From the NCBI GenBank assembly GCA_052168235.1, contig JBQLZK010000023.1, positions 27,739 to 91,738 on the forward strand: a DNA stretch of 64,000 bases, read 5' to 3'. This document shows positions 1,519 to 16,137 of this stretch, piece by piece. The stretch is from Thainema sp. (GTDB lineage Bacteria; Cyanobacteriota; Cyanobacteriia; Phormidesmidales; Phormidesmidaceae). A model generated the notes under the pieces. The model had not been told where the DNA came from. It did no database searches and saw only the letters and a program-made list of their open reading frames with translations. Position numbers and translations under genes: made by a program. How positions within the stretch are numbered: position 1 is the stretch's first letter; each line of letters begins with the position of its first letter.

Positions 1519-2835
1519 CTACCACTCCCGAAGTGCGATCGCAACTCCCTGACCCAGCGCGCTGTTCTCATCCAACTGCTGCTGAAGTTCCTGCAATCGT
1601 GTAAAAGCGGCATTGGGATTGAGCTGCTTTAAAGCTGCGATCGCATGAAAGCGCACGGCTGAATTGGTATCGGCCAGAAGCTGAATCAGTGGTTCCAGTG
1701 CTGTATCTTGGTCAAGCTGTCCTAAACCCAGAGCTGCCGCCTGCCGCACCGTATCGGAAAAAGACGGGTGAGTCATGGCGTGGGCTAGCAGTGGAGCGGC
1801 CTGCGATCGCAGGTCAGTATCCTGAATTTGACTCAGCCCCCGCACGATTTCGACCTGTACGTCGTCCTGCTCTAGCTTCAAGCCCTCAGCTAGCCCGTCT
1901 AGTGCCGTCTGCGATTCAATCCAGCTCAAGGTACGGGCCGCATTCACCCGCAGCGGCATCGGCGTATTGGGTGAATGCAGCACCTGCTGGAGAGCTTTTG
2001 CTGCCGCATCTGTGCCTAAGCGTCCCAGCGCAACCATCGCCTGACCGCACACGTCCAGGTTCAGATCCAGCAAGCAGGGCTGAATGTGAGCCACCAAGTC
2101 AATCTCGTTCAGCAAATCGCGTCGCCGACTCAGTCCAACCAGCGCTTCTCGCCGCACGGTGGATGCCGTATCCGCCAGCCCCTTCAGCAACACGGGTGTC
2201 ACCGCCGGATGGTGGAAACTGCCCAGTGCTTCAACTGTGATCGCACGAATTTGGGGCTGAGGTGAGTCCACAACCCGCAGCAGCGGCTCAATTGTTTCCA
2301 CGGTGCGGATTTGTGACAGTGCCTGTACGGCTGACAACTGCACGTCAGGATGATCCAGTAGATCCGCTAACGACTGAATGGCCGTGGAGCCGAGATTCGC
2401 TAAAGCCGAAGCAGCGATGGCCTGAAGTTCGTCATCCTCCGCTGTTTGTAGCAGTTCCGCCAGCACAAGAACGACTTCTGGCGCGTTGAAGTCACCCAGC
2501 AATCGCGCGGCAAACCAGCGCACTTCATCATCACAGTCTTCGTCTTGCACCAGGTCAATTAAAGGTGCGATCGCAGCGTTACCAAACTTCGGCACTAGTT
2601 TGGCGGCATCCCATCGGGACTGAAAATCCCCGTCAACTAAGCTTTGGATGGCTAAATCTAACGCGGTTTGGGTGTCGGCATCTTCGGCAGTCTCGCTATC
2701 GGGATTGGTGGGTTCAGGGGATGCAGACTCTCGCCCCGACCGATCGGGAGCGATGAAGCGTTCTAAATACTGATTGACCAACGACCAGTCCTGCTGCTGA
2801 GCCGCGGCTTGAGCCTGCTGCAATCCATCAACCAT
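1519..2835 (-). CDS. HEAT/PBS-lyase repeat protein, possibly NirB-like
   Basis: Repeated VR..AA.ALG / L..LL.D helices. Lies divergent from a nirA-type NtcA/NtcB promoter, like cyanobacterial nirB. The NirB identity is inference. Confidence 0.75.
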   Translation of the reverse strand: MVDGLQQAQAAAQQQDWSLVNQYLERFIAPDRSGRESASPEPTNPDSETAEDADTQTALDLAIQSLVDGDFQSRWDAAKLVPKFGNAAIAPLIDLVQDEDCDDEVRWFAARLLGDFNAPEVVLVLAELLQTAEDDELQAIAASALANLGSTAIQSLADLLDHPDVQLSAVQALSQIRTVETIEPLLRVVDSPQPQIRAITVEALGSFHHPAVTPVLLKGLADTASTVRREALVGLSRRRDLLNEIDLVAHIQPCLLDLNLDVCGQAMVALGRLGTDAAAKALQQVLHSPNTPMPLRVNAARTLSWIESQTALDGLAEGLKLEQDDVQVEIVRGLSQIQDTDLRSQAAPLLAHAMTHPSFSDTVRQAAALGLGQLDQDTALEPLIQLLADTNSAVRFHAIAALKQLNPNAAFTRLQELQQQLDENSALGQGVAIALREW

Positions 2836-3180
2836 GCAAGATTCACCTAAACCAAGAGCGCTCTTTATTTAATCCTATGACATTTGACTGGTACTTGATG
2901 TAAAAACTGCATAAAAGTAATGTTTTTAGTGCAACTAAATTGACCAGATTGCGAAATTTAATCGAAATCATATTTCAGTTTTTTGTGCAGTTGAAATTTT
3001 GATTCCATAACAACGAATTTCAGGATAATCACTAACTCAGCGAGGGTGAATACTATTTGCTAGAAGGAAATCTTGGTGGAGATACTTCTCATTTAGGATT
3101 TAGGTTTCGCAGTAGCTTGTTTGCAATGATTAGTCCAATCATTGCTTTTATTTCCCCCAAAATCGGTTGTTTGTAAAACG

Positions 3181-3212
3181 AATTATTTTGTATATAGAGC
3201 TACAAAATAATT
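3181..3212. promoter_or_regulatory. Distal NtcA box TGTA-N8-TACA (3189-3204) inside a 12-bp inverted repeat
   Basis: aattattttGTAtatagagcTACaaaataatt. Confidence 0.75.
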
Positions 3213-3228
3213 TGCGATCGCGAATTTT

Positions 3229-3264
3229 ATGCGATACCTGCATGAAGAATGTGCATTTTTTGCA
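3229..3264 (+). promoter_or_regulatory. NtcB-type LysR motifs: AT-N11-AT (3229-3243) and TGCA-N5-TGCA (3252-3264)
   Basis: ATgcgatacctgcAT and TGCAtttttTGCA, centred about -93 and -70 from an inferred TSS near 3329. Confidence 0.6.
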
Positions 3265-3280
3265 AAACCCTATTTTTTTT

Positions 3281-3322
3281 GTACTTAACTATACGAAAGG
3301 TACTGAATTACTTTTATAACCT
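3281..3322 (+). promoter_or_regulatory. Class II NtcA-activated promoter
   Basis: GTActtaactaTAC (3281-3294), exactly 22 nt, then TAACCT (TAN3T, 3317-3322). Confidence 0.8.
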
Positions 3323-3583
3323 TATTGGTGTAATAACTCCCAAGAGCTACTAAACAGATAGTGTGAGCAGTTGGCGCATTCGCCAGTTGCAGCTACTTTC
3401 AGTTGGCGGCGCAATTTGACGTGGGAATTTTACTTGAAAATCAAGAGGTAGTATGAGTGCCTTCCTGTGTTCTTAGTGTCAGCTAACACTGTATCTATTC
3501 AAGGCAAAATCAGAACTGCGAAATAGAAATAATTGCTTTTTGCAGATTTCCGTTGTTAATGATTAAGGGGAGCGGTCTCACTG

Positions 3584-4651
3584 ATGACTACAAAAACGGG
3601 GTTACAGATAGAGCTGCTAGAGCAGAGTTTCGAAAAAATTAAGCCTCAAGCGAACGATTTTGTGACTAGTTTCTACGATAATCTCTTCACGGATTATCCA
3701 GCCGCAAAGCCGCTATTTGCTCATACAAATATGTCTGAGCAAGGTAATAAATTGCTGATGTCTTTGGTGCTAGTCGTTGAAAATTTGCGTAAGCCAGAAG
3801 TACTGAGCAATACCCTAAAAGGTTTGGGCGCACGCCATGTTAAATATGGTGCGCTGCCAGAACATTATCCGTTAGTTGGCAACACGTTGCTAAAAACGTT
3901 CGAACAGTATCTGAGTGAGGATTGGACACCTGAAACCAAGCAGGCTTGGGTGGATGCCTACGGTGCCATCACCGAAATCATGCTGGATGGAGCTGATTAT
4001 TCCCAAGTTGAGGTGGATTTGGCCTCTGCGCCTGCACCTGCTGTGCCCGCAACGGATACTGAAACGGGACTGAAGGTGGAACTGCTAGAACAGAGCTTTG
4101 AGAAAGTGAAGCCGCAAGCTAATGCGTTTATTACTAGCTTCTACGACAATCTGTTCATCGACTATCCAGCCGCGAAGCCGTTGTTCGCCCATACCAACAT
4201 GGCGGAGCAGGGCAATAAGCTCTTGGCCTCTTTAGTTCTAGTTGTAGAAAACTTGCGCAAGCCGGACGTACTGAGTGGCAGCCTGAGAGGTTTGGGTGCT
4301 CGTCATGTCAAATATGGCGCACTGCCAGAGCACTACCCGCTCGTCGGCAATACGCTGCTGAAAACTTTTGAGCAGTATCTGGGTGAAGACTGGACACCTG
4401 CTACCAAGCAGGCTTGGACAGATGCCTATGGAGCGATTACCGAAATTATGCTTGATGGTGCCGATTACTCTCAGGCGGATGTCCAGCTTGATTCGGTTGA
4501 TCCTGCTTCTGTTGCAGCGGCAATGCCGACTGTTCCAGACGCATCACCAGCCGAACCAGCCAGCGAAGCTGCACCGATGAGTAGCAAAAAACTGGCTGCC
4601 TTTGGTGCCGGAGCACTGGGCATTATCGTTCTACTCATTCTCTTTTTGTAG
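3584..4651 (+). CDS. Tandem two-domain globin (flavohemoglobin/Vitreoscilla-type 3/3 fold) with a C-terminal membrane anchor
   Basis: Two near-identical repeats, each with SFYDNLF (B10 Tyr), PLF (CD1), EQG (E7 Gln), LGARHVKYG (F8 His) and EHYPLVG. Followed by an Ala/Pro linker and a hydrophobic tail (GALGIIVLLILFL). Confidence 0.9.
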   Translation: MTTKTGLQIELLEQSFEKIKPQANDFVTSFYDNLFTDYPAAKPLFAHTNMSEQGNKLLMSLVLVVENLRKPEVLSNTLKGLGARHVKYGALPEHYPLVGNTLLKTFEQYLSEDWTPETKQAWVDAYGAITEIMLDGADYSQVEVDLASAPAPAVPATDTETGLKVELLEQSFEKVKPQANAFITSFYDNLFIDYPAAKPLFAHTNMAEQGNKLLASLVLVVENLRKPDVLSGSLRGLGARHVKYGALPEHYPLVGNTLLKTFEQYLGEDWTPATKQAWTDAYGAITEIMLDGADYSQADVQLDSVDPASVAAAMPTVPDASPAEPASEAAPMSSKKLAAFGAGALGIIVLLILFL

Positions 4652-4669
4652 ACATCTTGGGGAGCTGTC

Positions 4670-5320
4670 ATGGCTGACCAGCGCCGCCGAAGATCCAGTT
4701 TGCGATCGCTACTTACCGTCAAGACCGCCATTATTTTCATCTGCATCGTGCTGATCGGCTGGGTTGGAACCGCCTTTGCGCTAGATAAAAAGACCATTTT
4801 TTTGCCAGGCGAAACGTCCGAAGGTCATTTTTTATTTGAAGCCTCCTGTTCCTCTTGCCACGAGGGATTTAAGCCCGTCAGTAACGACACCTGTATGCGC
4901 TGTCATGAAGCTGAAATGGCGGAGGATGCCCACGGCCCCAAGAAGTTTCGCGATCCGCGCTGGGCGGCTGAACTTGAAAAGTTGGAGGTACTAACTTGTA
5001 CGACCTGCCACAACGAGCATGTTCACATGTTTGGTCGGGGTGTACATCTGCAGCCCGATCTCTGTATGACCTGCCACGAGGGCATTATCAGCGGCGATCT
5101 AAAAAGTCACGACGGCTTTACCGCCGATGGCTGCTGGACAGCTGGTTGTCACAACTATCACGATCACCGCTCGATTTCCACCGGATTCATCCGCCAGAAT
5201 CTCGATCAGCCGATGATGTTGCCAACCCCGACTATGCCGGAACGCTTAGTAGAAGCTGAGTTAAAGACTGCACCAAACCCGGATCTGAGTCGTGAGTTCT
5301 TGGCGGGAGGTGCACCATGA
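4670..5320 (+). CDS. Exported multiheme c-type cytochrome (4 CXXCH + 1 CX4CH)
   Basis: CSSCH, CMRCH, CTTCH, CMTCH and CWTAGCH. Basic N-terminus and a hydrophobic stretch ending in AFA. Confidence 0.88.
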   Translation: MADQRRRRSSLRSLLTVKTAIIFICIVLIGWVGTAFALDKKTIFLPGETSEGHFLFEASCSSCHEGFKPVSNDTCMRCHEAEMAEDAHGPKKFRDPRWAAELEKLEVLTCTTCHNEHVHMFGRGVHLQPDLCMTCHEGIISGDLKSHDGFTADGCWTAGCHNYHDHRSISTGFIRQNLDQPMMLPTPTMPERLVEAELKTAPNPDLSREFLAGGAP

Positions 5321-6237
5321 TGCACTCTCCAAGAAGCTTAATATCCCGTCTGATTGCAACCCTGGCAGCGGCTCCCACCCACCTACTCACCTACCCTTCC
5401 ACGTTCACTACCTTAGCGAGAAACAGTCTAATCCTCTCCCTCGCAGTCTTAACTCTCGTCTTCAGCCCTGCCGTCCCAGCCGCTGCCGATATTACCGATG
5501 CTGAATTGGAGGAGATTACTCAGCTTTGGCAAGATAGTGCCCACGCTTTAGCCGATGTCAACTGTTCGAGCTGTCACTTGGCCGACGAAACGAACGCGCT
5601 GATTGCTCAGCCGACTCACGAGAGCTGCCAGTCGTGTCACGAGCAAGCGGTGGAAACCTTTCTGCTCGGCAAACACGGCATTCGGCTGCTGGAAGGACAG
5701 TCGCCGCTGACTCCGGCAATGGCTCGCCTTCCGATGCAGCCAGCCGCACACGGCAAGCAGATGAACTGCAACGCCTGCCACAACGTGCACTCAGTTGATA
5801 CCTACCAGGCGTCGGTTGATTCCTGTCTCACCTGCCACAACGACACCCACTCGTTGAACTACAAAAATTCCAAGCACGCCCAGCTCCTTCTGGCTGAAGG
5901 CGAGCTGCCCCGCCCGTCATCTGCATCTGTTACCTGTGCCACCTGTCACCTCCCTCGCCATGAATCGGCATCGGGCACGGTGCTCGTGAACCACAACAAC
6001 ACCTTCACGCTGCTACCCCGCGATCGCATGGTGAAAGAGGTCTGTCTGAACTGTCACGGCATGGAATATGGCTACAACAGCATCTTTGATGACGAACTGG
6101 TGGAATCCAATTTTGCCCGTCCCCCTGATCAAACCCTCCAGACTCTGGAGATGGTGCGCGCACTGGAGGAAACCCGGTCGGGCAGCGCATCAGCCTCGGA
6201 TTCTCAATCAGAATCTACTCCAGAATCAGGCTCATGA
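5317..6237 (+). CDS. Exported hexaheme c-type cytochrome
   Basis: CSSCH, CQSCH, CNACH, CLTCH, CATCH and CLNCH. Signal-like segment ending PAAA. ATGA overlap with the upstream gene. Confidence 0.88.
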   Translation: MMHSPRSLISRLIATLAAAPTHLLTYPSTFTTLARNSLILSLAVLTLVFSPAVPAAADITDAELEEITQLWQDSAHALADVNCSSCHLADETNALIAQPTHESCQSCHEQAVETFLLGKHGIRLLEGQSPLTPAMARLPMQPAAHGKQMNCNACHNVHSVDTYQASVDSCLTCHNDTHSLNYKNSKHAQLLLAEGELPRPSSASVTCATCHLPRHESASGTVLVNHNNTFTLLPRDRMVKEVCLNCHGMEYGYNSIFDDELVESNFARPPDQTLQTLEMVRALEETRSGSASASDSQSESTPESGS

Positions 6238-6344
6238 GGTGCCAAACCTCATGACCTAACTAGCGGATGCTCGCTCCCACACTCAAACACCATATTCAAA
6301 CCGATTTTAGTCCTGAGGCTAAAAACATTAGGAAGGAGAACGAC

Positions 6345-7007
6345 ATGATTGCAAATCACTATTTAAGCGGCTGGACGAGATGGCTACGCACCAAGACCGT
6401 TGCGTTTATTGCCATTATCCTCAGCGTTTGCGTTATTGCTGTGGGCTGTAGCAACAGCACCGCACAGCAGGATTCAGCGGATGGAGTTGCCCCAGAGTTG
6501 GTGGCGGATTATATTCACACCGCACTGGCGGCAGACCGCACGGCCTACACCAAGCACGTCGTCAACCGGGCTAAAACCCTAGAGGGCAAAGTCAAAGATG
6601 ATGGTGTCCTCGCAGTTGAAGCGACTGAAGGCTGGCAGCAAACCAATGGTATTCCCCTGCCTGCTCAGATGTTCCGTCTGGGTTCTGAGATCGCCTCAGA
6701 GGATGGCACCTTTACCTATAACCTGATTTCGCCTTGGAATATTAATGACAGCCAAGCTCCTAAAAATGAGTTTGAGCAAACAGCGATGCAGCAGGTTTTG
6801 GACACCGGAGAACCGTATAAGGACTATCAGGAAGTAGGTGGAATGCGCTATTTCTCGGCGCTGTATCCCGACATCGCGGTCGCGGAAGCCTGCGTCACTT
6901 GCCACAATACTCACCCGGTTCACCTCGAACGCTATCCCGATAAAGTGTTCGAGATGGGCGACGTGATGGGCGGCGTCATGATTAATATTCCTCTAGAAGG
7001 GGCTTAA
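6345..7007 (+). CDS. Tll0287/DUF3365-like monoheme c lipoprotein
   Basis: Lipobox-like IAVGC, single CVTCH, PAQMF..., and G.VMGG end. ATG 6345 follows AAGGAG (ORF track start 6267). Confidence 0.75.
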   Translation: MIANHYLSGWTRWLRTKTVAFIAIILSVCVIAVGCSNSTAQQDSADGVAPELVADYIHTALAADRTAYTKHVVNRAKTLEGKVKDDGVLAVEATEGWQQTNGIPLPAQMFRLGSEIASEDGTFTYNLISPWNINDSQAPKNEFEQTAMQQVLDTGEPYKDYQEVGGMRYFSALYPDIAVAEACVTCHNTHPVHLERYPDKVFEMGDVMGGVMINIPLEGA

Positions 7008-7011
7008 AGTT

Positions 7012-7049
7012 TTCCACAGAGGAGAAGGCTAGCCTTCTCCTCTGTGGAA
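7012..7049. repeat. Perfect intercistronic palindrome
   Basis: ttccacagaggagaaggct|agccttctcctctgtggaa. Confidence 0.8.
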
Positions 7050-7153
7050 TCACAGCAAAATTAGTGCGATCGCACCTTTTCAATCTTTCAACTTTCTGAC
7101 TTTTCAACTTTCCAACCTTTCACGACGGTGCTTCAATAGGCTTGACCCACGCC

Positions 7154-7759
7154 ATGAAACCCAGATTTGCTACGCTGATCATTTTGACGCTGGTGACGGC
7201 AGCTTTACTCCTGCCGTTTGCGTTTAGTGCAGGCTATTTAGATGTGCTGAGAAATCGTTCGGTCGATCTGCATCAGGTGTTGAGAGGTGAACTCTATAAG
7301 CAGGCTACGGGTTATTTATCGTTGACCTTCGTTGGGCTAGAAATGGCGTTAACGGTACGCAAACGCAGCCTCGGCTGGAAGTTCAAAATTCGCATTCCTG
7401 GCTCGATGCAGTTTTGGCGCAGTTTGCACATTTTTGCCGGAGTGGGCCTCGTTGCCTTAACGCTGGTGCACACGATTGGCTCGACGGGCGCTAATTTCAA
7501 CTCCGTTTTTCTCTGGGTCTTTTGGGGCGTAACGCTATCTGCATTAATCGGCGCAGTGGCTGAAACGGGCATTTTGGAATCCCCCCGCAAATACTTCGGC
7601 TTGGCATCATCCAAAGTCGGCAATCTAGCGCTCGGTACCACCAAAGGCCCCCTCATCCGAGGTTTACGCGCTTTCTGGTTATCGACGCACATTATCCTCG
7701 TCACCGTCTTCTGCCTCATGCTCGGCGTTCATATTTTTCTGGCCTACTACTACCAGTAA
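7154..7759 (+). CDS. Integral membrane protein, probable diheme b (cytochrome b/ferric-reductase-like)
   Basis: About 5 hydrophobic helices. Two His pairs 14 residues apart (LHIF...LVHT and THII...GVHI). Confidence 0.65.
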   Translation: MKPRFATLIILTLVTAALLLPFAFSAGYLDVLRNRSVDLHQVLRGELYKQATGYLSLTFVGLEMALTVRKRSLGWKFKIRIPGSMQFWRSLHIFAGVGLVALTLVHTIGSTGANFNSVFLWVFWGVTLSALIGAVAETGILESPRKYFGLASSKVGNLALGTTKGPLIRGLRAFWLSTHIILVTVFCLMLGVHIFLAYYYQ

Positions 7760-7773
7760 ACAGCAGTAACGTT

Positions 7774-8244
7774 ATGCCAAATCGACTCAACACTCGCCTA
7801 ACCTGGGCCGTCGGCTTAGTGGTTGTGTTCATTGTGGGTACTCTATTCCTGACGCGCCCTTCCGTGTCAACCAGCAGCCTGTCGCCGGTTTCGGGTCTGA
7901 TGTCGCTGCGGCAGATGGCGCAGAGTTCGATGCTGTATGACGATGCGATCGCAAATCAGAAACCGACGCTCGTCGAGTTTTATGCTGACTGGTGTACCAC
8001 CTGCCAGTCTCTTGCGCCGACGCTGCATGAGCTAGAGCAGGATTACGCTAACCAAGTTAATTTTGTCATGCTCAATATCGACGATCCGCGCTGGGCTGAG
8101 CAAGTCGATCAGTATGAGGTTACTGGAGTCCCCAAAATTGTCCTGCTCACGACCGATCAGCAGGTTTCAGACACCTTTATTGGCAGACTGCCCCGCTCTG
8201 TTCTAGCCGAAGCCATTGGGCAACTGCTGCCGTCAAATTCCTAA
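7774..8244 (+). CDS. Membrane-anchored thioredoxin-like thiol-disulfide oxidoreductase (TxlA/HCF164-like)
   Basis: N-terminal TM, VEFYADWCTTC and cis-Pro motif GVP. Confidence 0.85.
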   Translation: MPNRLNTRLTWAVGLVVVFIVGTLFLTRPSVSTSSLSPVSGLMSLRQMAQSSMLYDDAIANQKPTLVEFYADWCTTCQSLAPTLHELEQDYANQVNFVMLNIDDPRWAEQVDQYEVTGVPKIVLLTTDQQVSDTFIGRLPRSVLAEAIGQLLPSNS

Positions 8245-9153
8245 TGCGCCATTCTCCTGTAGCCAGCCAATTTGAGCCAGCGTCAGTCCAGTGACACCAC
8301 CAAACACCGCACCATTCACCTGGGCATCTGATAAATCGACGCCTTCCAAGACGGCATTTTCTAAATTGGCATGTTGCAAATTCGCGCCCGTCAAATTCGC
8401 ATAGGACAAATTGGCATCTTCCAAACAGGTGCCAAACAGGCTGGCGTTGGTCAAATCGGTATAGCTTAGATTGGCATCGCTTAAGTTCGCCCAGTCAAAT
8501 TGAGTTTCCGTCAAAATCGCGTGGGTCAAATCGGCATCCGAAAGGTTTGCACCCAGCAAATCCGCATCAGTCAGATTAGCGCTGATCAGACAGGCTGCCG
8601 CTAAATTGGCTCGCTCCAAATCAGCTCCATAAAAGGATGCTCCGGCCAAGTTGGCGTTGCACCACTGGCTGCGGCGTAGAGTGGCTCCGCCAAAACTAGC
8701 CTGACTAAAATCGCTGCCGCATAGATTGACTTCAATCAAGCTGGCATTTTTAAAGATGGCATTGCGTCCTATCGCCTGACTCAAATCGGCTCGATCTAAG
8801 TCAGCAAATAGGGCGTGGACACCATCCAAAACCGCACTGTGCAAATTTGCTTGTGCGGCTGTGATACCCTCCAGATTGCTTTGCTCTAGGCGAGCCCGCG
8901 TCAAATTGGCTTTCTTGAAAATGGCGTGTTTGGCATCTACTCGGCTCAGATTCGCCAGGATGAGCGTGGCGCGGCTGAAGTCGGCCTTTTGGCAAGACGC
9001 GTAGGACAAGTTGGCAAATCGCAGATATGCCTTTGTAAACTGGCCGCGATCCAACTGCTTCCCGCATAAATCAATACGACTCAGTTCAGCCCGACGCAGC
9101 GATTTGCCATCGTGAACGCGAGTTAAGACTTCATCTAGGGTGAGTTGAGCCAT
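8233..9153 (-). CDS. Pentapeptide repeat protein
   Basis: Continuous A(D/N)LXX repeats. ATG at 9153 is the probable start. Confidence 0.9.
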   Translation of the reverse strand: MAQLTLDEVLTRVHDGKSLRRAELSRIDLCGKQLDRGQFTKAYLRFANLSYASCQKADFSRATLILANLSRVDAKHAIFKKANLTRARLEQSNLEGITAAQANLHSAVLDGVHALFADLDRADLSQAIGRNAIFKNASLIEVNLCGSDFSQASFGGATLRRSQWCNANLAGASFYGADLERANLAAACLISANLTDADLLGANLSDADLTHAILTETQFDWANLSDANLSYTDLTNASLFGTCLEDANLSYANLTGANLQHANLENAVLEGVDLSDAQVNGAVFGGVTGLTLAQIGWLQENGALGI

Positions 9154-9315
9154 AGCCAGTTCCAATTCAGTGTTCTAATTAACAGTTTAAGAAAATAATT
9201 TGTGTAATCCATTACAGAATATCGGCTCTTGCCGGTTTGAGCTGTCTTCTGTCAAGAAATCGCCACATAAGATGAGATTTGCTTAACAAAACGAAAAGTA
9301 ATTCATATGGCTGTA

Positions 9316-9384
9316 GTCAGCTCTGTTAGGACACGGACATTTTTGTGGCGCGGCTTAGCCGCGCCACAAAAATGTCCTAAACCA
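9316..9384. repeat. Palindromic dispersed repeat family A, copy 1
   Basis: gtcagctctgttaggacacggacatttttgtggcgcggc... An inverted copy lies at 58551-58617. Confidence 0.85.
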
Positions 9385-9411
9385 GGTGCAATATCTATGG
9401 AATTTAGAAAC

Positions 9412-9953: not shown

Positions 9954-12863
9954 TTAATAGACGGCACTCCGGATAGAGTCATGGCTGAGTTGAAGATTGG
10001 GTGCAATCGGTAGGGTGACGGTAAAGGCAGTTTTGCGATCGCAACTTTCCACCTGAATCTCACCGCCCAGATGATGCACCAGTTCTCGCACCAGGGCTAA
10101 GCCTAAGCCTGTGCCGCCCTGCTGCCATCGGTCTGTGCTGGGCACCCGATAAAACTTTTCAAAAATATGGGGCAGTTCTTGGGTTGGAATGCTGGCTCCC
10201 GTGTTGCAGACGGTGATCTGGAGCTGATCGAGCTGATTGCTGTGCTGCGGCAGGATAGCTACTAGTTGAATCTGTTCATGGGGCGGCGTGTACTTACAGG
10301 CATTGTGCAGCAGTTCACCAACAATGCGGCTGATGCCATCCTGATTCGATTCAATCATGGGCAGCGGTTGCGGAATTGCGACCTCAAGCCGAAGCTGACG
10401 GGCATTGATATGGCCCTGGAAGGAATCGGCCAGCGTGGGCAAGAGCAGATTCAGATCAACCTCTGCTAGTTCTAGCGGTTGGCGATTGGCTTCCAAGCGC
10501 TGCAAATCCAGCAGGTCATTCACCAAGTTAATTTCTTGCTGACATTCTGCATTAAGGATTTTGAGATACTGAGCAATGCGCCGCACCAGCGATTCTGGAT
10601 GAGCCGATAAATCTAGGTCGAGGGCTGACTCTGGGTGAGAATTGACATGAGAATGAGCTGGTGTCGCTGTGTGGGATTTGCCATTAGTAGGATTGGGGGC
10701 ATCGACTCGCGTGGAATCGATGGCGTCTTGCGGCGACAGATGGGTCATGACCAGTTGGCGGAGCGTCAGATTCAGCATTTGCAGCGCCATTTTCATATTG
10801 GTAATCGGCGATCGCAACTCATGGGACACCGTACTGAGGAAGTCATCTTTGAGCTGATTAAGTTGCTCAAGCGCTTCCACCTGCATTTGGGCAGCGGCAA
10901 ACAGGCGGGCCTGCCGAATTGCGATCGCACATTGATTGGCCACCTGCTGCGCGAGCTGAATCTCGGGCTGGGTGAAAATTTGGTTTTTGGGGCGAGTTAA
11001 CCACAAATCGCCGAGGATGCCCTGATCGTCAAAAATCGGACAGGCCAGGAACGTAATTTCTCCCCGCACGGGATGAAAGTCCACAAACTGCACCCATTGC
11101 CGCTGCAGCAGTTGAGCATAGACGTCTTTGCGGCCCGACATCGGCCAAATCTGGTTGACTCCAGTGGGGACTTCAACCGTCGCGTATTCGTAGCGCACCC
11201 GTGACTCTTGGCGCTCCAGGTCGTAAAATGCCGTATCGCAGGTTTGAGCGTCTAAGCCAATCGCTAGATCTTTGACCACGGCCTGCATAATCTGCTGCTC
11301 ATCTAGGCTGTCTCGCACGTTGTCGGTAATCCGCTTGAGCAGCGCGTCAAACTGGCGGGCTTGCTGCAGTTGGGCCGTTCGCTCCTGTACCTGCTGCTCC
11401 AGCTTTTGATTAAATTCCTGCACGTGACCATAAAGCTGGGACTGCTGAATTGCGATCGCAACTTGGCTGGCTAGCTGTTTCAACAATTCGATTTCCATCT
11501 CCGGCCAGGGACGCGGCTCAGAACACTGATTGGCCAAGAGTAGCCCCCACAGTTGCTGATCAAACACAATCGGCACCACTAAATTGGCCCGCACGCCGAA
11601 CGATTCCAGCAGTTCGACATGGCAGGGGGTGAGATTCGCTTGATAAACATCCTGAATCGACTGAATTCGCCCCTGCTGATACTGCTCGACATACCGCTGG
11701 GCAAAACAGTGGTCGGTAATCGTGCGGCCCAAAGCGCTGAATTGCGACTGCATCACCGATTCCACAATTACCGTACCGCTCCAGTCAGCATGAAAGCGGT
11801 AGATCAGCACCCGCTCAATCTGCAAAAACTGACGAATTTCCGTGACCGTGGTCTGCAAAATGGTCTCGAGGTCCAGCGATTGACGGATGCGCTGACCAAT
11901 ATCAGCCACGAGTTTCGTCTGTTTGGCCTGCTGTCGCAGCAGTTGTTCCGCCTGGATATGGACGGTGATGTCCTGCACCACACCATCACGCCGGAGCGGA
12001 TTGCCGTCTACATCGCAAATGAGATAACCGCGATCGCGCAGCCAGCGGATCGTGCCATCCGGACGAATGATCCGATAAATGGCTTCGCCACAGGGATTCT
12101 CGACCCCGATTTGGGCAAAGATCTGCTTTGTGCGAACCTGATCGTCGGGATGAATCACCTCAAACCAAAGATTAGGATTGTCAAAAAATGCCTCAACTGG
12201 ATAGCCATATACGGCTTCAGCGACCGGATTCAGATAAATCATGTACGATTTATCGACGGCAGTTGACCAGACCACTTCTTCCAGCGAGTTTAAGATACTG
12301 CTCAGGCGAGCTTCACTATCCTGTAGCGTTTGCTCAACCGCTTGGCGAACCCGGATCTCATGCAATAGCGCCTGATTCGCAGCCGTGAGGGCGGCTGTGC
12401 GTTCCTCCACCCGCTGTTCAAGGGTTTGATTGAGCTGTTCAATTTCGGCTTTAGCGGCCTGTAGCGCCAGTTGATTTTGAACGCGGAGGACGACCTCTTG
12501 CGGGTCAAAGGGCTTGGTAATGTAGTCAACTCCGCCCACCTCGAAGGCCTTAGCCTTGTCGCCAATGCTATCTAAGGCGCTGAGGAAAATAATGGGAATA
12601 TGGCAGGTTTCGGGTGCAGCTTTGAGCTGTTGACAGAAACTGTAGCCGCTAATGTCGGGTAATCGAATATCGAGCAGGATTAAATCGGGCGGAGCGGCTT
12701 GAATTCCCATCAGCGCCATTGAGCCACTGATGGCCTTGCGGATGTCATAGCCTTGGTCGCTGAGGGTTTTCGCGAGGAGCGACAGGTTCTCCAGCGAATC
12801 ATCCACAATTAAAATATGCGGTTGGGATTGGCAATCGGACGAATATCCAGTCTGCCCTGTCAT
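9954..12863 (-). CDS. Hybrid histidine kinase REC-PAS-GAF(DXCF cyanobacteriochrome)-GAF-HisKA-HATPase
   Basis: REC (ILIVDD, LLDI, KPF) and PAS (IHPDD, RWLRDRG). GAF1 carries DHCF and PCH. H-box SHELRSP, NACKY and GTGLGL. Confidence 0.9.
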   Translation of the reverse strand: MTGQTGYSSDCQSQPHILIVDDSLENLSLLAKTLSDQGYDIRKAISGSMALMGIQAAPPDLILLDIRLPDISGYSFCQQLKAAPETCHIPIIFLSALDSIGDKAKAFEVGGVDYITKPFDPQEVVLRVQNQLALQAAKAEIEQLNQTLEQRVEERTAALTAANQALLHEIRVRQAVEQTLQDSEARLSSILNSLEEVVWSTAVDKSYMIYLNPVAEAVYGYPVEAFFDNPNLWFEVIHPDDQVRTKQIFAQIGVENPCGEAIYRIIRPDGTIRWLRDRGYLICDVDGNPLRRDGVVQDITVHIQAEQLLRQQAKQTKLVADIGQRIRQSLDLETILQTTVTEIRQFLQIERVLIYRFHADWSGTVIVESVMQSQFSALGRTITDHCFAQRYVEQYQQGRIQSIQDVYQANLTPCHVELLESFGVRANLVVPIVFDQQLWGLLLANQCSEPRPWPEMEIELLKQLASQVAIAIQQSQLYGHVQEFNQKLEQQVQERTAQLQQARQFDALLKRITDNVRDSLDEQQIMQAVVKDLAIGLDAQTCDTAFYDLERQESRVRYEYATVEVPTGVNQIWPMSGRKDVYAQLLQRQWVQFVDFHPVRGEITFLACPIFDDQGILGDLWLTRPKNQIFTQPEIQLAQQVANQCAIAIRQARLFAAAQMQVEALEQLNQLKDDFLSTVSHELRSPITNMKMALQMLNLTLRQLVMTHLSPQDAIDSTRVDAPNPTNGKSHTATPAHSHVNSHPESALDLDLSAHPESLVRRIAQYLKILNAECQQEINLVNDLLDLQRLEANRQPLELAEVDLNLLLPTLADSFQGHINARQLRLEVAIPQPLPMIESNQDGISRIVGELLHNACKYTPPHEQIQLVAILPQHSNQLDQLQITVCNTGASIPTQELPHIFEKFYRVPSTDRWQQGGTGLGLALVRELVHHLGGEIQVESCDRKTAFTVTLPIAPNLQLSHDSIRSAVY

Positions 12864-12882
12864 GTCAAATCTCCCTGCTCGC

Positions 12883-15800
12883 TCAAGTTCGTTCCTGAGT
12901 CAGTTCCACAATTCGATCAAATCGCACCTGTAAAACCAAGTCTGTGAGTGCGATCGCAAGTTCTACCTGCTCTGTTGGCATGGCGTTAATCAGCGCAAAG
13001 ACGCGATTCTCGTCAAGTTGAGTAGCAGCCTCATATAGTTGGTGCACCCAAGCAGATGGCATATTGGCAAGCTGACTGGTAACTTCTTCGAATTGCTCAG
13101 GCGAACGGAGGCTATTGCATGAGCTTGGATTAAGAGAAGACGGTAAGCTTAGCGAATGAGCTGGGGGTGACGCTAAGTTGCCATTGGTGCCCGTACTTGT
13201 AACATCAAGATTTTTGATATCAAGATTATAGACGTGTTGATCATAGACGTATTGAACATCTAAATGTTTGGCTAATATGTTGAAGATTGCATGAGCTAAA
13301 ACAGGCTTTCGTAAAAAGTCATCACAACCCGCTGCTAGCACCACGGCTCGCTCTTCTTCAAACGCGCTAGCGGTCACTGCAATGATAACGGGTGGTGTCA
13401 GATTCATCTGCTTTGCCCGAGCTTTAATCTGACGAGTGGCCTCATAGCCATCCAGCTCCGGCATATGCATATCCATCCAGATCAGGTGTGGTTGCCAATC
13501 CTGCCACTGTGCGATCGCATCATTGCCATTGCTAGCCTCGCGCACCTCAAACCCCACAGGCTCAAGACATCGTCGCAGAACGAGGCGGTTGGTTGACCGA
13601 TCATCCACTACCAACAATCGATAGGTGGGCTGTTCCGCCGCTAAGCCAATCACGTTGCGCTGCGCTTTGGGGGAGTCCTGAGGGCTGCAAAGATCTGGCA
13701 CCGCTGCAATTGTGAACGTTACAATCGTGCCTTCTCCCAGCGTACTGTGAATTGCAATGTCTCCCTGCAGCAGCTGCACAAACTTTTTACTGATAGCCAG
13801 CCCCAACCCAGTACCCTGCTGAGACCGCCGACCGGCTTCCGTTTGCATAAACGGCTCAAATAAACCACCAATGTCGGTGGCTGCAATCCCAATTCCTGTA
13901 TCAATTACCTGGAAGCGAAGCATGATGGGCTCGCCTGTAGGGATGTCTGGTGGGATCGGTACAGCAGCGATTGTCGTTGGCTCGGATATAGCAGACGGTT
14001 CCACATCAACCCGCAGCGTTACACTACCCTTCTGAGTAAACTTAACAGCGTTGCTGATCAAATTCAGCAGGATTTGACGTAGTTTACGTTCATCGGTATA
14101 GATAAACTGCGGTACATCTGGCGCATACTGAACGACGAATTGTAGTTCTTTGGATGCAGCCCGGAGCTCCATCATGTCTTCGATGGTGCCGAGCAAGCTA
14201 TACAAGTTAAAGCTTGATGCTTCAACGTCAATGCGACCGGCTTCAATCTTCGACATCTCCAGCACATCATTAATTAGCTCTAGCAGATGTTCGCCGCTGC
14301 GGCTAATCACATCCAGGTCTGACTTGTGGGGGGCTAACGCAGGCTTATGGCTGAGCAGTTGTGAAAATCCCAAAATGGCGTTCAGCGGCGTCCGGAGTTC
14401 ATGGCTCATACTAGCCAAAAACGCGCTCTTGGCCTGGTTGGCGGCATCGGCTGATTCTTTGGCCTGCTGTAGGGCTTGAAACTGCTGAACCAGGCTAGCT
14501 GCCATCAGTTTCACGTTATTGATTAAAGAGGCAATTTCTGTGATGTGGCTAGCTGGCCACTGCACAGGGCGCTGATCCGATAGATGTTTGGGCAGATTGG
14601 TGGTGACATGAGCCAGCTGAGCGACCGGACGAACCAGTTGGCGGCTGAGCAGAAACGCTAGACCTAGTGCGCCAGTGGTGAACAGTAAGAGAATGGCCAG
14701 ATTTTTGATGTTGATTTCTTGAATCGCAGTGACGTAGGGGGCGGCTGGTAGTTCGATAATCAGCGTCCAGGGAATGCCTTCAGCCAGCGGCGTTTCTTGG
14801 ACAAACATGGATTGGGTCCACCGCTGCATAAACAGTCCTGCTGGTGGCAACCACTGATAGGCGATCGCTGAATCTGCAATGGGAATAACTGTTCCCGTTT
14901 GCTTTAAATCAAAGGGGTGTCCTAAGTTGCGATCGCGATGGCTACTGGTCACAATCTGCTGATTCGCATCAACCAGCGTGGCAAAACTATCAATCCCTTG
15001 ATTTTCGTTCTCAATCAGACTCTGTAACTGCTGTAAGCCAACGATACCTATGGCAAATCCTTGTAGCTGATTGGTTTGAATCGGCGCAGCAAAGACAAGC
15101 TCGGTTGGTTCTGCCAGTGTCAGTAACGCCGCGTGAGGTGCATCCGAGCGTAACTGAGAACGAATCTGATCGAGGTCACTGGTCGCTAATGGGGAGAAGG
15201 TGGCTGATCTAGATACTTGGGAGCCAGATGCTGCTGAATTCGGTTGCGGGTCAAGCTGTGAACGAGCCAATACGCTGGCTGATGCAATGGGGGCATCAGC
15301 CACGATCTCTCCGTTATCGGTCAAAATCAACAGCCGATGAAAGCTGGGAAATAACCGCTGCACAGCTCCCAATTCGAGCTGAAGCAGATTCTCTTCTGTT
15401 ATCAAACTGGTTGAGGACGGCTTGTTCTCGGCGATCCGAACCAGTTCAGTAATGGCCACTTGATGCTGCTGTTGCCATGCTTCTAGCTCGTGCTGGAGAT
15501 GATTCGAGATATTTTGCAATTCAACTTGCTTATCGGCCACAATATCGCTGACAACCTGGCGACTATCAATTGCAACGAGGAGCAGCGTTGGAAAAAAAAC
15601 AAAGGCAACGAGTAGGTTAAACAACGTTTGCTGAAGCGAAAGCGCCTCAATGGCTTTGGGCCGCTGCACCCAGCGGTGGATGGGAGAATAGATTAACAGT
15701 AGGTTGGCAATCAGAGCATTAAAAATGCCGTTGGCTGATTGCTTCAGCATGATGATTTGGGTTTGTACCAGGTCTACCCCCATCGCCCCCCGATAAAACA

Positions 15801-16137
15801 GCCAAATCAACGGCATGCCGATACACAGCCAATACACCATATCGAGCAGGACTAGATTTTGCCGATAGTGCCAGTAAAACCAGCCGACGAAGATGGCCTC
15901 AGCCGCAAAGATTAGAATTGAATAAGGGTGTCCCCACAGAAAAAACGTGCAGCTAGCGGCAAAAATGGCTGCCGTAATTCCCCAGCGGTAGCCATAGAGA
16001 CACAGCACTAGCCAAACTGCGATCGCACCGAACAAAAAGTCAATGTGAAAGAACAGCGACCAGCGGAAATAGTTACCGAGGAAGCCAGCCGCCACCAGGA
16101 ACGCTAATCCGACAGTCGACTGATGATGTCGTGTCAC
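12883..16137 (-). CDS. Membrane hybrid sensor kinase (multi-TM, Cache-like, HAMP-like, HisKA, HATPase, REC)
   Basis: Hydrophobic N-terminus, [26 protein letters not shown] and a REC domain (VVDD, WMD, KP). Confidence 0.9.

Follow-up and report, generated by a model that had tools for sequence, protein, structure and literature searches.

A conserved, apparently undescribed cyanobacterial operon best explained as the core of a transmembrane haem relay

Six genes at positions 3584 to 8244 of a 64,000-nt stretch of Thainema sp. DNA (the window) form a genuine unit, apparently a conserved, undescribed cyanobacterial operon, and full-text literature searches returned no description of the module. 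The best explanation is that they make up the core of a transmembrane haem relay, widespread but undescribed, in its cyanobacterial form. We hold this architecture to be highly probable; the complete statement, in which relay architecture is combined with inward electron flow and NO dioxygenation, is put forward as a tentative though quite possible reading. The features concerned are as follows (positions in the window, strand, description):

3190..3203, strand given as ".", distal NtcA-type box GTATATAGAGCTAC
3281..3294, +, proximal NtcA-type box GTACTTAACTATAC
3584..4651, +, gene 1, tandem globin (Pfam Globin, two stretches)
4670..5320, +, gene 2, pentahaem cytochrome c (Pfam Cytochrom_c3_2 above cut-off; four CXXCH and one CX4CH)
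5317..6237, +, gene 3, exported hexahaem cytochrome c (Cytochrom_c3_2 above cut-off; six CXXCH)
6267..7007, +, gene 4, stand-alone Tll0287-like/sCache_haem monohaem lipoprotein (Pfam Tll0287-like, 67.7 bits, cut-off 24.1)
7142..7759, +, gene 5, membrane protein with five helices and two His pairs, family unannotated
7774..8244, +, gene 6, membrane-anchored thioredoxin-fold protein (Pfam Thioredoxin; WCTTC)
8233..9165, -, gene for a 310-aa pentapeptide-repeat protein, convergent with gene 6 and overlapping its 3' end

The six ORFs lay on the same strand and were closely packed, with gaps of 18, -4, 29, 134 and 14 nt, and inspection of the sequence identified the -4 gap between genes 2 and 3 as an ATGA overlap. 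Within 768 aa, genes 2-4 specified 11 CXXCH and one CX4CH motifs, against a single CXXCH in the remaining six-frame ORFs of at least 100 aa in the window, which total 22,214 aa. Among 76 related cyanobacterial loci, 63 had the five core genes complete, 61 of these with identical order and strand, and each of the 13 incomplete loci ended at a contig end. The 4-nt overlap was kept in 60 of 71 loci, a thioredoxin gene followed gene 5 in 45 of the 66 loci with room to judge, and synteny extended to 31 of 38 metagenomic loci. In addition, an RNA library contained a 4,864-nt contig of a relative (about 90% identity) that matched positions 3487-8230, globin through thioredoxin, with both ends no more than about 35 nt from the operon borders. 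Upon recount, the countable details of the initial annotation (six co-oriented genes, the ATGA overlap, 11 CXXCH plus CX4CH, and WCTTC) were all correct; its two globin domains correspond to the two Pfam stretches in gene 1 and its four transmembrane histidines to His96, His110, His183 and His197 of gene 5. Co-conservation of the genes, which it had proposed, was confirmed by the related loci, and the co-transcription that it had raised as a question is supported by the one contig spanning all six genes in a close relative.

Gene 2 starts with a hydrophobic anchor or signal and has CWTAGCH as its CX4CH site. It carries six extra His, each kept in at least 95% of the sequences, and gene 3 has six additional conserved His. 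A plausible conserved second His ligand was found for all twelve c-haem sites, so that no catalytic c-haem is evident, and the motifs counted in genes 2-4 included no CXXCK site. Genes 2 and 3 were fused in frame in 17-18 of 22 complete metagenomic frames, and the best explanation is that these translationally coupled genes form an 11-haem unit. The gene-3 profile matched the HAO-like protein 6h5l (E 1e-7 over five haem motifs) and, weakly, both NrfA and octahaem nitrite reductases. However, the extra catalytic haem motif of the HAO-like protein fell in an alignment gap with gene 3, and, unlike in HAO, octahaem nitrite reductase and NrfA, the additional His of gene 3 would permit bis-His ligation of all six haems. 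For gene 4, conservation points to Met27 (about 6345) as the likely true start. Its only conserved Cys residues are those of the lipobox (Cys61) and of the CXXCH (CVTCH at 209); the Cys/His ligation of Tll0287 is therefore not possible, and the site may be exchangeable.

Gene 5, whose true start is likely Met5 (7154) as judged from conservation, was modelled by AF2 with five helices (pLDDT 81). Its four His form two pairs with i, i+14 spacing on helices 3 and 5 and were invariant in 55 of 55 aligned relatives and 19 of 19 distant homologues, consistent with a putative di-haem-b transmembrane wire. The protein defines an unannotated family: the cytochrome b, NrfD and Ferric_reduct Pfam models all scored below cut-off, DUF4405 reached 17.8 against a cut-off of 26.7, and one distant relative matched Ferric_reduct at E of about 1e-3. 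The best membrane-protein matches in a fold search were CybB (5oc0, Z 9.3), cytochrome b6 (Z 8.2) and HyaC (Z 7.5), values within the range that helical bundles reach by chance. Pyr_redox_2/Rubredoxin_C/BFD reductase domains preceded the wire domain in 53 of 57 long relatives, one of which additionally had an H-NOX domain, and were present in all 18 tested fused ORFs of the metagenomic loci. These N-terminal fusions suggest that the N-terminus of gene 5 is cytoplasmic and that the domain serves as a membrane electron wire; together with the charge distribution, they predict a topology that is the reverse of that of cytochrome b. The NOX/FRE/MsrQ ferric-reductase domains and b561 proteins (CybB, HyaC) similarly have two His pairs on two transmembrane helices and a cytoplasmic N-terminus, and the cytoplasmic NAD(P)H-flavin module of gene-5 relatives is a further likeness; they differ in that gene 5 has five helices, not six or four, and in its partner, which is a globin or a NirB-like reductase.

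Gene 1 comprises two globin domains (about aa 1-140 and 163-300), a Pro/Ser/Ala/Glu-rich linker and a C-terminal hydrophobic tail (aa 336-355) with KK just before it; as an N-terminal signal is absent, the protein reads as cytoplasmic and tail-anchored. Of 84 cyanobacterial globin-like ORFs, 61 had the tail, in contrast to none of the 14 globins in the metagenomic modules, and the number of globin domains, two here, ranged from one to five in other loci. Since the linker between globin and tail is long (about 30-130 residues) and flexible, a fixed docking site is not implied. The class is F-type (Hmp/Vgb/Cgb-like), as initially annotated: the globin part of Hmp was the best NCBIfam match, and Tyr31, Gln53, His85 and Tyr95 aligned with B10, E7, F8 and G5 of Vgb and Cgb. 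Hmp, Vgb and Cgb, with which the module globin shares subfamily and pocket residues, have an established NO dioxygenase chemistry. Unlike Hmp, it lacks an FAD/NAD domain, and it departs from all three in its two-domain form here, its membrane tail and an electron supply that presumably comes via the membrane wire. Another comparison is offered by Bjgb-Flp, where, in the accessible part of the published description, the single-domain Hmp-like Bjgb is co-expressed with nitrate/nitrite assimilation genes and is served in NO detoxification by a separate FAD/NAD(P)H reductase, Flp, the two being presented as a cytoplasmic two-protein unit. Non-cyanobacterial modules resemble it in having a NirB/NorW-like NAD(P)H reductase beside the globin (Flp being likened by its description), but where the module includes a reductase, it is fused to the di-haem membrane domain, and 11 c-haems and a Cache-haem protein come after it; the cyanobacterial form, which lacks a reductase, possesses membrane-tethered tandem globins together with a Rieske protein in the periplasm.

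System II haem lyases dedicated to adjacent substrates are exemplified by NrfI and CcsA1 of Wolinella. By analogy, ResB-like and CcsA-like genes were co-distributed with the special cytochromes of the module, one of which has CX4CH. Near the 76 loci, ResB-like genes were present in 46, CcsA-like genes in 38 and Rieske genes in 30; in a 401-genome sample of the phylum, an intact gene 5 and the ResB-like gene occurred in the same five genomes, and five of five genomes with none of the three genes near the core had the ResB-like gene elsewhere. In the source genome the three genes lie in one operon on another contig, adjoining nirA-nrtP; the CcsA-like gene there is a second, enlarged one (601 aa) and has a WGWD motif. 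The ResB-like/CcsA-like pair is the dedicated haem-attachment system of the module, and gene 6, with WCTTC at residue 73, probably reduces the apocytochrome cysteines. Near the metagenomic modules, tblastn detected neither ResB-like nor CcsA-like genes although the CX4CH site is kept, a difference from Wolinella suggesting that the pair may serve a compartment, not the motif, possibly the periplasm as opposed to the thylakoid lumen. The Rieske protein, which is part of the extended module, has an RR (Tat) signal and a lipobox, both shared with PetC3, its best solved relative (PDB 5cxm, E 2e-16). The accessible part of the report on Synechocystis PetC3 describes a periplasmic lipoprotein with an Em of +135 mV whose function and partners are unknown; the module gene differs in sharing an operon with the ResB-like/CcsA-like genes and in its co-distribution with the multihaem module. 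The source genome has another small Rieske gene, and the module Rieske is either an orthologue or a paralogue of PetC3. The set of six genes, which had been thought self-contained, thus has to be extended by these factors encoded elsewhere, and the thioredoxin annotated as its own maturation factor is indeed present, but as one of three maturation genes.

Upstream of gene 1, the -10 element TAACCT (3317-3322) follows the proximal box by 22 nt, the spacing of a class-II NtcA-activated promoter, and in a close relative an NtcA-type box lies at a start-codon distance matching that of the distal box. At least one such box was found in 40 of 62 upstream regions, many of them from related species and so not independent; 200 shuffles gave 10 such regions on average and 19 at most, and 59 of 402 AT-rich control windows had a box. 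An exact box was absent from the other 22 regions. Upstream, boxes numbered 1.55 per kb, as against 0.21 per kb elsewhere in the loci, a strong enrichment. These sequence features make an NtcA-activated promoter the most likely start of transcription, and the module would then be made under limiting nitrogen. In the non-cyanobacterial loci the reductase-wire fusion precedes the same set of cytochromes, Cache-haem protein and globin, a wire with its own reductase being present in 21 of 38 metagenomic loci, and the fused reductase scored best with the N-terminal half of NirB and with NorW. Modules of distant relatives adjoin nirA-like genes (four loci), NasT-like and NrtA/B-like genes (L123), NarJ/NarI (L113) and H-NOX (L105). 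Four long metagenomic loci (L105, L113, L123 and L126) had the wire, cytochromes and Cache protein with no globin match, which suggests that the outer chain may have an independent function. The nitrogen/NO link proposed by the initial annotation is thus supported by the NtcA-type boxes and by this gene context; as to the linkage to nar/nir/nas that it had named as a check, nir/nrt genes adjoined the partner locus here and the four metagenomic loci, but nirA/nrtP adjacency was found neither in the other 76 cyanobacterial loci nor in five further unlinked partner stretches.

In the preferred reading, the 11-haem unit, the Cache-fold monohaem lipoprotein and the PetC3-type Rieske lipoprotein would lie on the periplasmic side of what we infer to be the plasma membrane, gene 5 would carry two b-haems through it, and the tail-anchored tandem globins, with their NO-dioxygenase-type haem pocket, would be held beside gene 5 on the cytoplasmic side, the c-haems being attached by the thioredoxin and the ResB-like/CcsA-like pair. 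Such a chain of periplasmic c-haems, di-haem-b membrane protein and cytoplasmic globin had been proposed initially and fits the topology, the fusions and the invariant residues. The flow direction, the substrate (NO, nitrite or O2) and any role in micro-oxia are putative. Electrons passing from the outer haem chain via gene 5 would keep the globin ferrous, and the ferrous globin would convert NO and O2 to nitrate, which would protect nitrate/nitrite assimilation and recover nitrogen. Three points suggest inward flow in the cyanobacterial form: its lack of a reductase, its additional Rieske protein and the chemistry known for such globins. In the fused relatives the electrons come from cytoplasmic NAD(P)H, a point in favour of outward flow there. 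If outward flow also held here, gene 5 would hand cytoplasmic reductant on to the 11-haem unit and the Cache-haem lipoprotein, and these would reduce NO, nitrite, hydroxylamine or another acceptor in the periplasm; the globin, rather than ending the chain, would scavenge NO in the cytoplasm in parallel or regulate the wire in response to gas. Consistent with this are the cytoplasmic NAD(P)H-flavin-[2Fe-2S] reductases of the long relatives (53/57) and tested metagenomic fusions (18/18), the H-NOX domain added to one of them, the long loci without globin, the distant relationship of gene 3 to HAO-like, octahaem nitrite reductase and NrfA enzymes, and the Cys-less site of gene 4, since the accessible part of a preprint states that signalling members of the Tll0287 family without that Cys bind NO. 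The same part, however, gives weak NO binding for stand-alone Cache-haem proteins; moreover, the electron source would be unaccounted for in the cyanobacterial form, which encodes no cytoplasmic reductase, the HAO-like catalytic motif falls in a gap, and a conserved second His is available at each of the twelve c-haem sites. We consider outward export in this form rather unlikely.

It is improbable that the module acts as a redox valve through which a nitrogen-starved cell passes surplus photosynthetic or fermentative electrons out across its plasma membrane, either to carriers in the periplasm or to external acceptors, with no specific nitrogen-oxide link. A multihaem chain with a membrane wire does resemble extracellular electron-transfer conduits, record titles place most carriers among mat, biofilm or symbiotic cyanobacteria, and the NtcA-type boxes imply expression when nitrogen assimilation, the main electron sink, is missing; but an outer-membrane component recurred in none of the 76 loci, and the nitrogen-oxide context of distant relatives and the NO-dioxygenase-type pocket would be left unexplained. 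Equally doubtful, if not slightly more so, is O2 scavenging for nitrogenase, in which the tethered globins would bind O2 and reduce it with relay electrons to protect non-heterocystous nitrogen fixers. In its favour are the truncated cyanoglobin within the nif cluster of Nostoc commune, nifH above the family cut-off in the source genome and five of nine other carrier genomes, and the nitrogen control indicated by the boxes; against it, four of ten carrier genomes lacked nifH, no nif gene recurred around the module, and non-cyanobacterial modules adjoin nitrite-/nitrate-related genes, not nif. Cache and globin domains are frequently sensory, and NO sensing by Tll0287-family signalling members is stated in the accessible part of the preprint, but a system in which globin and Cache-haem protein sense gas or redox, the cytochromes only setting the redox state, is very improbable: output domains are missing from all six proteins, about 16 haem sites with a dedicated attachment system would be disproportionate, and the two histidine kinases downstream in the window do not recur in related loci. 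Finally, although single parts match known families and the pairing of Rieske and di-haem-b proteins recalls Rieske/cytochrome b complexes, a characterised complex (cytochrome b6f variant, Nrf, Hao, alternative complex III or MsrPQ) or chance neighbours can hardly explain the synteny in 76 cyanobacterial and 31 of 38 metagenomic loci, the below-cut-off scores and reversed predicted topology of gene 5, the missing CXXCK and HAO-like catalytic motifs, or the empty literature searches.

It was also noticed that the pentapeptide-repeat gene convergent with the thioredoxin gene is a recurrent neighbour of the cyanobacterial loci, and that a paralogue of its product is encoded after the Rieske gene in the partner locus.

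ORF listing, motif searches and Pfam/NCBIfam scans bore out what the initial annotation had read in the window, namely six co-oriented genes with an ATGA overlap, 11 CXXCH motifs plus one CX4CH, two globin stretches and a WCTTC thioredoxin.

3584-4651, + strand: gene 1, tandem globin (ORF listing; two Pfam Globin stretches)
4670-5320, + strand: gene 2, multihaem cytochrome c (4 CXXCH and 1 CX4CH; Cytochrom_c3_2)
5317-6237, + strand: gene 3, hexahaem cytochrome c (6 CXXCH; Cytochrom_c3_2)
6267-7007, + strand: gene 4, Tll0287-like protein (1 CXXCH; Pfam)
7142-7759, + strand: gene 5, membrane protein (sub-threshold DUF4405 match only)
7774-8244, + strand: gene 6, thioredoxin (Pfam Thioredoxin; WCTTC)

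A sequence check placed the ATGA where gene 2 stops and gene 3 begins, and only one further CXXCH was present in the 22,214 aa of all other six-frame ORFs of at least 100 aa in the window. Scanning gene 3 against one genome per species yielded 76 loci, for which every record title naming a taxon named a cyanobacterium (Moorena, Acaryochloris, Coleofasciculus, Spirulina, Symploca, Prochloron, Phormidesmis, Xenococcaceae, Pleurocapsa and others), while five titles read only "uncultured bacterium". Culturable carriers named in record titles include Acaryochloris marina, Leptolyngbya sp. PCC 7375, Thalassoporum mexicanum PCC 7367 and Moorena. The expected co-conservation across genomes was confirmed: all five core genes (genes 1 to 5) were present in 63 of the 76 loci, with the order and strand of the window in 61 of these 63, and in each of the 13 incomplete loci a contig border lay where the missing gene was expected. 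The 4-nt overlap between the gene 2 stop and the gene 3 start recurred in 60 of 71 loci, and of the 66 loci with room to judge, 45 had a thioredoxin gene no more than 1.8 kb downstream of gene 5. Matches in the protein atlas were cyanobacterial hypothetical clusters only, plus one Myxococcota cluster (at 0.87), and a tblastn search of 72,556 plasmids detected no gene 3 homologue.

A relative about 90% identical was present in three metatranscriptome runs from one biofilm study. A 4,864-nt RNA-library contig of the approximately 90% relative covers positions 3487-8230 with only some 30-35 extra letters at each end, and therefore ends at the operon borders. A single transcript of some 4.8 kb would account for this but is not proven by it, because contigs cannot show one transcript and an RNA library may contain DNA; gaps in the RNA contigs within 2800-9300 are uninformative either way. 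A simple sigma-70/terminator scan gave no more signals than shuffled sequences, and an Rfam scan of 2700-9400 revealed no riboswitch in the leader of about 255 nt, returning only sub-threshold microRNA-like chance matches.

It had been suggested that the six-gene set could be self-contained, an idea that did not survive the search for recurrent neighbours by clustering all ORFs of the 76 loci: genes for a ResB-like, a CcsA-like and a Rieske protein co-occur with it, which in the window genome lie on another contig (L089, the partner contig).

L089:2081-5325: ResB-like/CcsA-like/Rieske operon of the window genome, divergent from nirA and an NrtP-type nitrate/nitrite transporter gene
Window 8233-9165, - strand, and L089:10707-11633, + strand: pentapeptide-repeat paralogues, 44% identical, each ending one half of the module

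The ResB-like protein (about 610 aa) was found in 46 of the 76 loci by tblastn, the CcsA-like protein (about 570-600 aa) in 38 and the small Rieske protein in 30, their genes usually being divergent and upstream of the globin; the pentapeptide-repeat protein (about 307-310 aa), with no evident role, was found in 35-36 of the 76 loci on either strand. Of 401 genomes sampled from the phylum, six contained gene 5 and five the ResB-like gene; these five coincide with the genomes in which gene 5 is intact. The remaining genome with gene 5 (G334) had only a 104-residue piece of gene 5 broken by an internal TAG (G334:C47:12794-13087) and no ResB-like gene; this piece looks like the remnant of a decaying module. 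Five genomes with none of the three genes within 8 kb of the core all carried a ResB-like orthologue elsewhere (59-61% identity), followed in two of the five by the CcsA-like and Rieske genes. Co-occurrence of the core with the ResB-like gene was thus strict in what was sampled.

Both the ResB (PF05140) and the Cytochrom_C_asm (PF01578) models were matched above cut-off. The ResB-like protein scored 154.6 against a cut-off of 187.6 for CcsB (TIGR03144) and is therefore a paralogue, not a CcsB equivalog. A WGWD motif was present in the CcsA-like ORF of the window genome, and WCTTC was conserved in 49 thioredoxins, gene 6 itself scoring below all equivalog cut-offs. The predicted proteins carry the features of System II cytochrome c synthesis, i.e. 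ResB and Cytochrom_C_asm domains, a WWD-type motif and an apparently anchored CXXC thioredoxin. The Rieske ORF of the window genome (PF00355) starts with MDRRTFL...AIAAC, a twin-arginine signal plus lipobox, and its best solved relative is 5cxm, Synechocystis PetC3, described in the text on that protein as a periplasmic lipoprotein with an Em of +135 mV and proteome effects on nitrogen metabolism. The periplasmic location is also given in the corresponding statement of a second source, and the function of PetC3 has, in the words of the PetC3 text, "not yet been revealed". The window genome contains a second small Rieske gene (G000:C76:8031-8450, a 148-aa frame 43% identical to the query), so the true PetC3 orthologue may be another protein, with the Rieske protein of the module as its paralogue.

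For nitrogen control, we looked for the arrangement expected for NtcA, a GTA-N8-TAC box with a TAN3T -10 element some 22 nt downstream, and located the following motif match upstream of the globin in the window.

3281-3294: proximal NtcA-type box, with TAACCT at 3317-3322

The box was present in 40 of the 62 regions upstream of the globin (61 loci and the window, partly from related species and so not independent), compared with a mean of 10.0 and a maximum of 19 regions in 200 shuffles and with 59 of 402 equally AT-rich control windows; the other 22 regions had no exact box. Boxes were denser upstream of the globin (1.55 per kb) than in the remainder of these loci (0.21 per kb), and a TATAA-like hexamer usually lay some 22 nt beyond the promoter-proximal box. 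Loci of the Pleurocapsales type have another box roughly 200 nt off that is directed towards the divergent ResB-like gene, and in Moorena a box precedes the separate ResB-like gene. No exact NtcA-type box was found within 500 nt upstream of the ResB-like gene of the window genome; a box at L089:5718-5731 lies 615 nt upstream of it, in an intergenic region of about 1 kb shared with nirA. By motif and spacing, the module is a putative member of the NtcA regulon, with its transcript predicted to start near position 3329.

The gene 1 product matched PF00042 (E 7e-40) in two stretches, corresponding to the 3-on-3 globin fold, and its best PDB relatives were single-domain bacterial globins and flavohaemoglobins. 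Residues Y31, Q53, H85 and Y95 of domain 1, which we take to be Tyr-B10, Gln-E7, His-F8 and Tyr-G5 in the helix-position labels of Vgb, align with the pocket residues of Vgb (1vhb) and Cgb (2wy4), with conservation of each of the four at 90% or above, up to full invariance, in 34 di-globins. The top NCBIfam match was the globin part of Hmp; the C-terminal FAD/NAD(P)H reductase domain of Hmp is absent from gene 1, the match to NF009805 (140.9 bits vs a cut-off of 432) spanning profile positions 15-135 only. We infer that the gene 1 globins are probably of the NO-dioxygenase type. For Cgb, the electron donor is stated to be not known in a passage of a Bradyrhizobium paper. Gene 1 has no N-terminal signal, and a variable linker rich in Pro/Ser/Thr/Ala/Glu leads to a terminal hydrophobic segment, which was found in 61 of 84 globin-like ORFs of the cyanobacterial loci behind one to five tandem domains. 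Five such domains on one tail were seen in a 784-aa ORF (L039:4783-7137) and three in each of three loci (L024:684-2315, L034:1602-3149 and L037:2205-3671); in the two-domain globin of L022 the first domain is without the proximal His region and the membrane-proximal domain is intact. In 12 of the 76 cyanobacterial loci, gene 5 is followed by a globin of a second type, about 140-208 aa long, which lacks a membrane tail and shares a conserved extension at its C-terminus (GELTFYEWLDLYGE...F+Y); the window genome has no copy.

L003:10378-10917: second globin type
L006:7066-7608: second globin type
L015:4591-5139: second globin type
L017:11583-12209: second globin type
L022:10633-11160: second globin type
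L027:10259-10807: second globin type
L038:10366-10788: second globin type
L048:10307-10876: second globin type
L054:10421-10969: second globin type
L066:2312-2839: second globin type
L075:10308-10847: second globin type
L077:1797-2396: second globin type

Multihaem cytochromes are unusual in oxygenic phototrophs. The products of genes 2 and 3 matched Cytochrom_c3_2 with 29.1 and 38.7 bits, respectively (cut-off 25), and have five and six haem sites, every motif being kept in 95% or more of 68 sequences. Six more His are conserved in each protein, so bis-His ligation of all the haems is possible. Weak homology links the two proteins, and in 17-18 of 22 complete metagenomic frames genes 2 and 3 form one frame with 10 CXXCH and one CX4CH; we accordingly take them to be one 11-haem unit divided between two genes. 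Assignment to the quinol dehydrogenases of the NapC/NirT/NrfH kind was not supported, as the family models (Cytochrom_NNT/TIGR03153) were not reached, gene 2 giving no match and gene 3 scoring 17.6 bits for NrfH against 134.2. The gene 3 profile aligned with the HAO-like protein 6h5l across five motifs (E 1e-7), and no catalytic haem of the HAO/NrfA type was evident, there being no CXXCK and the extra haem motif of 6h5l falling in a gap of the alignment. An AlphaFold2 model of the hexahaem protein (55 sequences) had a mean pLDDT of 53.6 and was left out of the fold search. Gene 4 scored 67.7 bits against 24.1 for PF11845 (Tll0287-like/sCache_haem), and its CVTCH at residue 209 was conserved in 73 sequences. 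The haem of Tll0287 is Cys/His ligated according to a preprint passage; since the lipobox Cys61 is the only conserved Cys of gene 4 outside CXXCH, gene 4, as judged from the alignment, cannot keep this ligation. A phmmer search of PDB sequences with gene 4 (E <= 0.01) gave no match and hence no direct alignment to the Tll0287 chain. Stand-alone Cache-haem proteins are described as being without informative gene association in part of the Cache-haem preprint.

Relatives of gene 5 were all "hypothetical" and without Pfam annotation. Its AF2 model (pLDDT 81.4, pTM 0.74) has five long helices, with His96 and His110 on helix 3 and His183 and His197 on helix 5, these four residues being invariant in 19 distant and close homologues. 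By the positive-inside rule the Arg/Lys-rich loops 72-93 and 143-177 would be cytoplasmic, which would put one His pair near each membrane face. When 1.84 billion representative proteins were searched by profile, 294 matched at E <= 1e-3; among the best 150 of these 294, 57 were at least 380 aa with the gene-5-like domain C-terminal, and Pyr_redox_2 lay N-terminal to it in 53 of the 57, mostly with Rubredoxin_C and a BFD-type [2Fe-2S] domain, the other four having one FNR-type module or, in three cases, nothing. One of the 53 reductase fusions (P0315) also carries an N-terminal H-NOX domain. The reductase fusions and the invariant His indicate that the gene-5 domain is, on the prediction from sequence, a membrane electron wire that contacts a redox partner on the cytoplasmic side. 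A Rieske/cytochrome b (bc1, b6f) identity was not supported, with no Cytochrome_B match for gene 5 and no subunit-IV-like gene in the loci; phmmer gave no PDB sequence match at E <= 10, and Foldseek returned nothing from the PDB at E <= 0.001. In a wide VIA fold search talin rod bundles came out on top and di-haem cytochromes reached Z 7.5-9.3 (cytochrome b6, Z 8.2, rmsd 6.6), within the chance range for helical bundles, so that the model's likeness to di-haem cytochromes is a lead only. For DUF4405 (cytochrome b561 clan) the window protein scored 17.8 against 26.7, the distant relative P0252 39.3 and the others below the cut-off.

Scanning metagenomes with an 8-sequence alignment of distant stand-alone gene 5 homologues gave 38 loci, without taxonomy, of which 31 had gene 2/3 homologues beside the gene-5-like domain and 14 had a globin. 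Two layouts were observed: A) globin, gene 2, gene 3, gene 4, stand-alone wire, monohaem cytochrome c and a ferredoxin-nitrite-reductase-like gene, and B) a reductase-wire fusion of 616-771 aa (21 of the 38 loci; Pyr_redox_2 in all 18 fusions tested) followed by cytochromes, a Cache-haem protein and, sometimes, a globin. The nirA-like gene of L102, L104, L106 and L107 scored 510 bits against a cut-off of 594 and has a fused NirD-like Rieske domain, and the best match of the fused reductase was the N-terminal half of NirB (340-365 bits), next NorW. The linkage to nir/nar/nas that had been anticipated held in part: it was seen at the partner locus of the window genome and in these four metagenomic loci, but nirA/nrtP adjacency was absent from the 76 cyanobacterial loci and five further partner loci. 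L123 has an ANTAR regulator and NMT1_2 and BPD_transp_1 transport genes as neighbours, and L113 has NarJ/NarI. Other gas-binding proteins were noticed near globin-less metagenomic modules, namely a stand-alone H-NOX gene (L105:8687-9226) and a hemerythrin (L113:5861-6379). The hydrophobic tail was absent from all 14 metagenomic-locus globins, and tblastn detected no ResB-like, CcsA-like or stand-alone Rieske protein in the 38 loci. The cyanobacterial form thus differs in a correlated way: its wire has no reductase, its globins are tethered, and it possesses in addition a periplasmic Rieske protein and System II genes of its own.

The architecture of the module and its nitrogen-oxide context are well supported, and its chemistry is what we infer. 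In the cyanobacterial form electrons would flow inward to the NO-dioxygenase-type globins, because the globin pocket belongs to the electron-consuming, O2-activating kind, the module lacks a cytoplasmic reductase and it has gained a periplasmic Rieske protein. The main rival is outward flow that would serve a periplasmic reductase activity, a reading favoured by the fusions of NAD(P)H reductases to the wire and by the loci without a globin. Protection of nitrogenase is weakened as an explanation, and a strict tie to nitrogen fixation is rejected, because nifH scored above the cut-off in only 6 of 10 carrier genomes. With inward flow, the module could be a new respiratory enzyme, a transmembrane "globin oxidoreductase" in which a PetC3-type Rieske protein and the 11-haem wire would feed the di-haem-b protein and, through it, tethered haemoglobins converting NO to nitrate; under NtcA control, the NO of surrounding mats would become a nitrogen source besides being a toxin to clear. 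In this full form we consider the proposal rather unlikely.

Full-text searches, with subscription-journal papers and supplementary files outside their scope, found no paper describing the module, in which three orphans meet: single-domain bacterial globins, PetC3 and stand-alone Cache-haem proteins. If a globin oxidoreductase did exist, all three would gain long-missing partners, and the relay as proposed would be a new way to power haemoglobin chemistry from across a membrane and a new nitrogen-regulated NO route in mat- and biofilm-forming cyanobacteria. The NAD(P)H-reductase-fused versions in other bacteria would then be a new family of prokaryotic transmembrane electron exporters.

The remainder of the window (9.4-43 kb) contains ordinary housekeeping and signalling genes with no evident tie to the module. 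Just downstream, at 9954-16137 (- strand), are two large hybrid sensor kinases (receiver-PAS-GAF-kinase and membrane kinase-receiver) and a DUF760 gene, none of which recurred in the related loci. Upstream of the globin, at 1519-2835 (- strand), is a HEAT-repeat protein (PBS-lyase/NblB-like, far below the equivalog cut-offs), which recurs at the same place with about 40% identity in five Moorena loci and with 87% in L002, another of the related loci, and may be a loose neighbour of the module.
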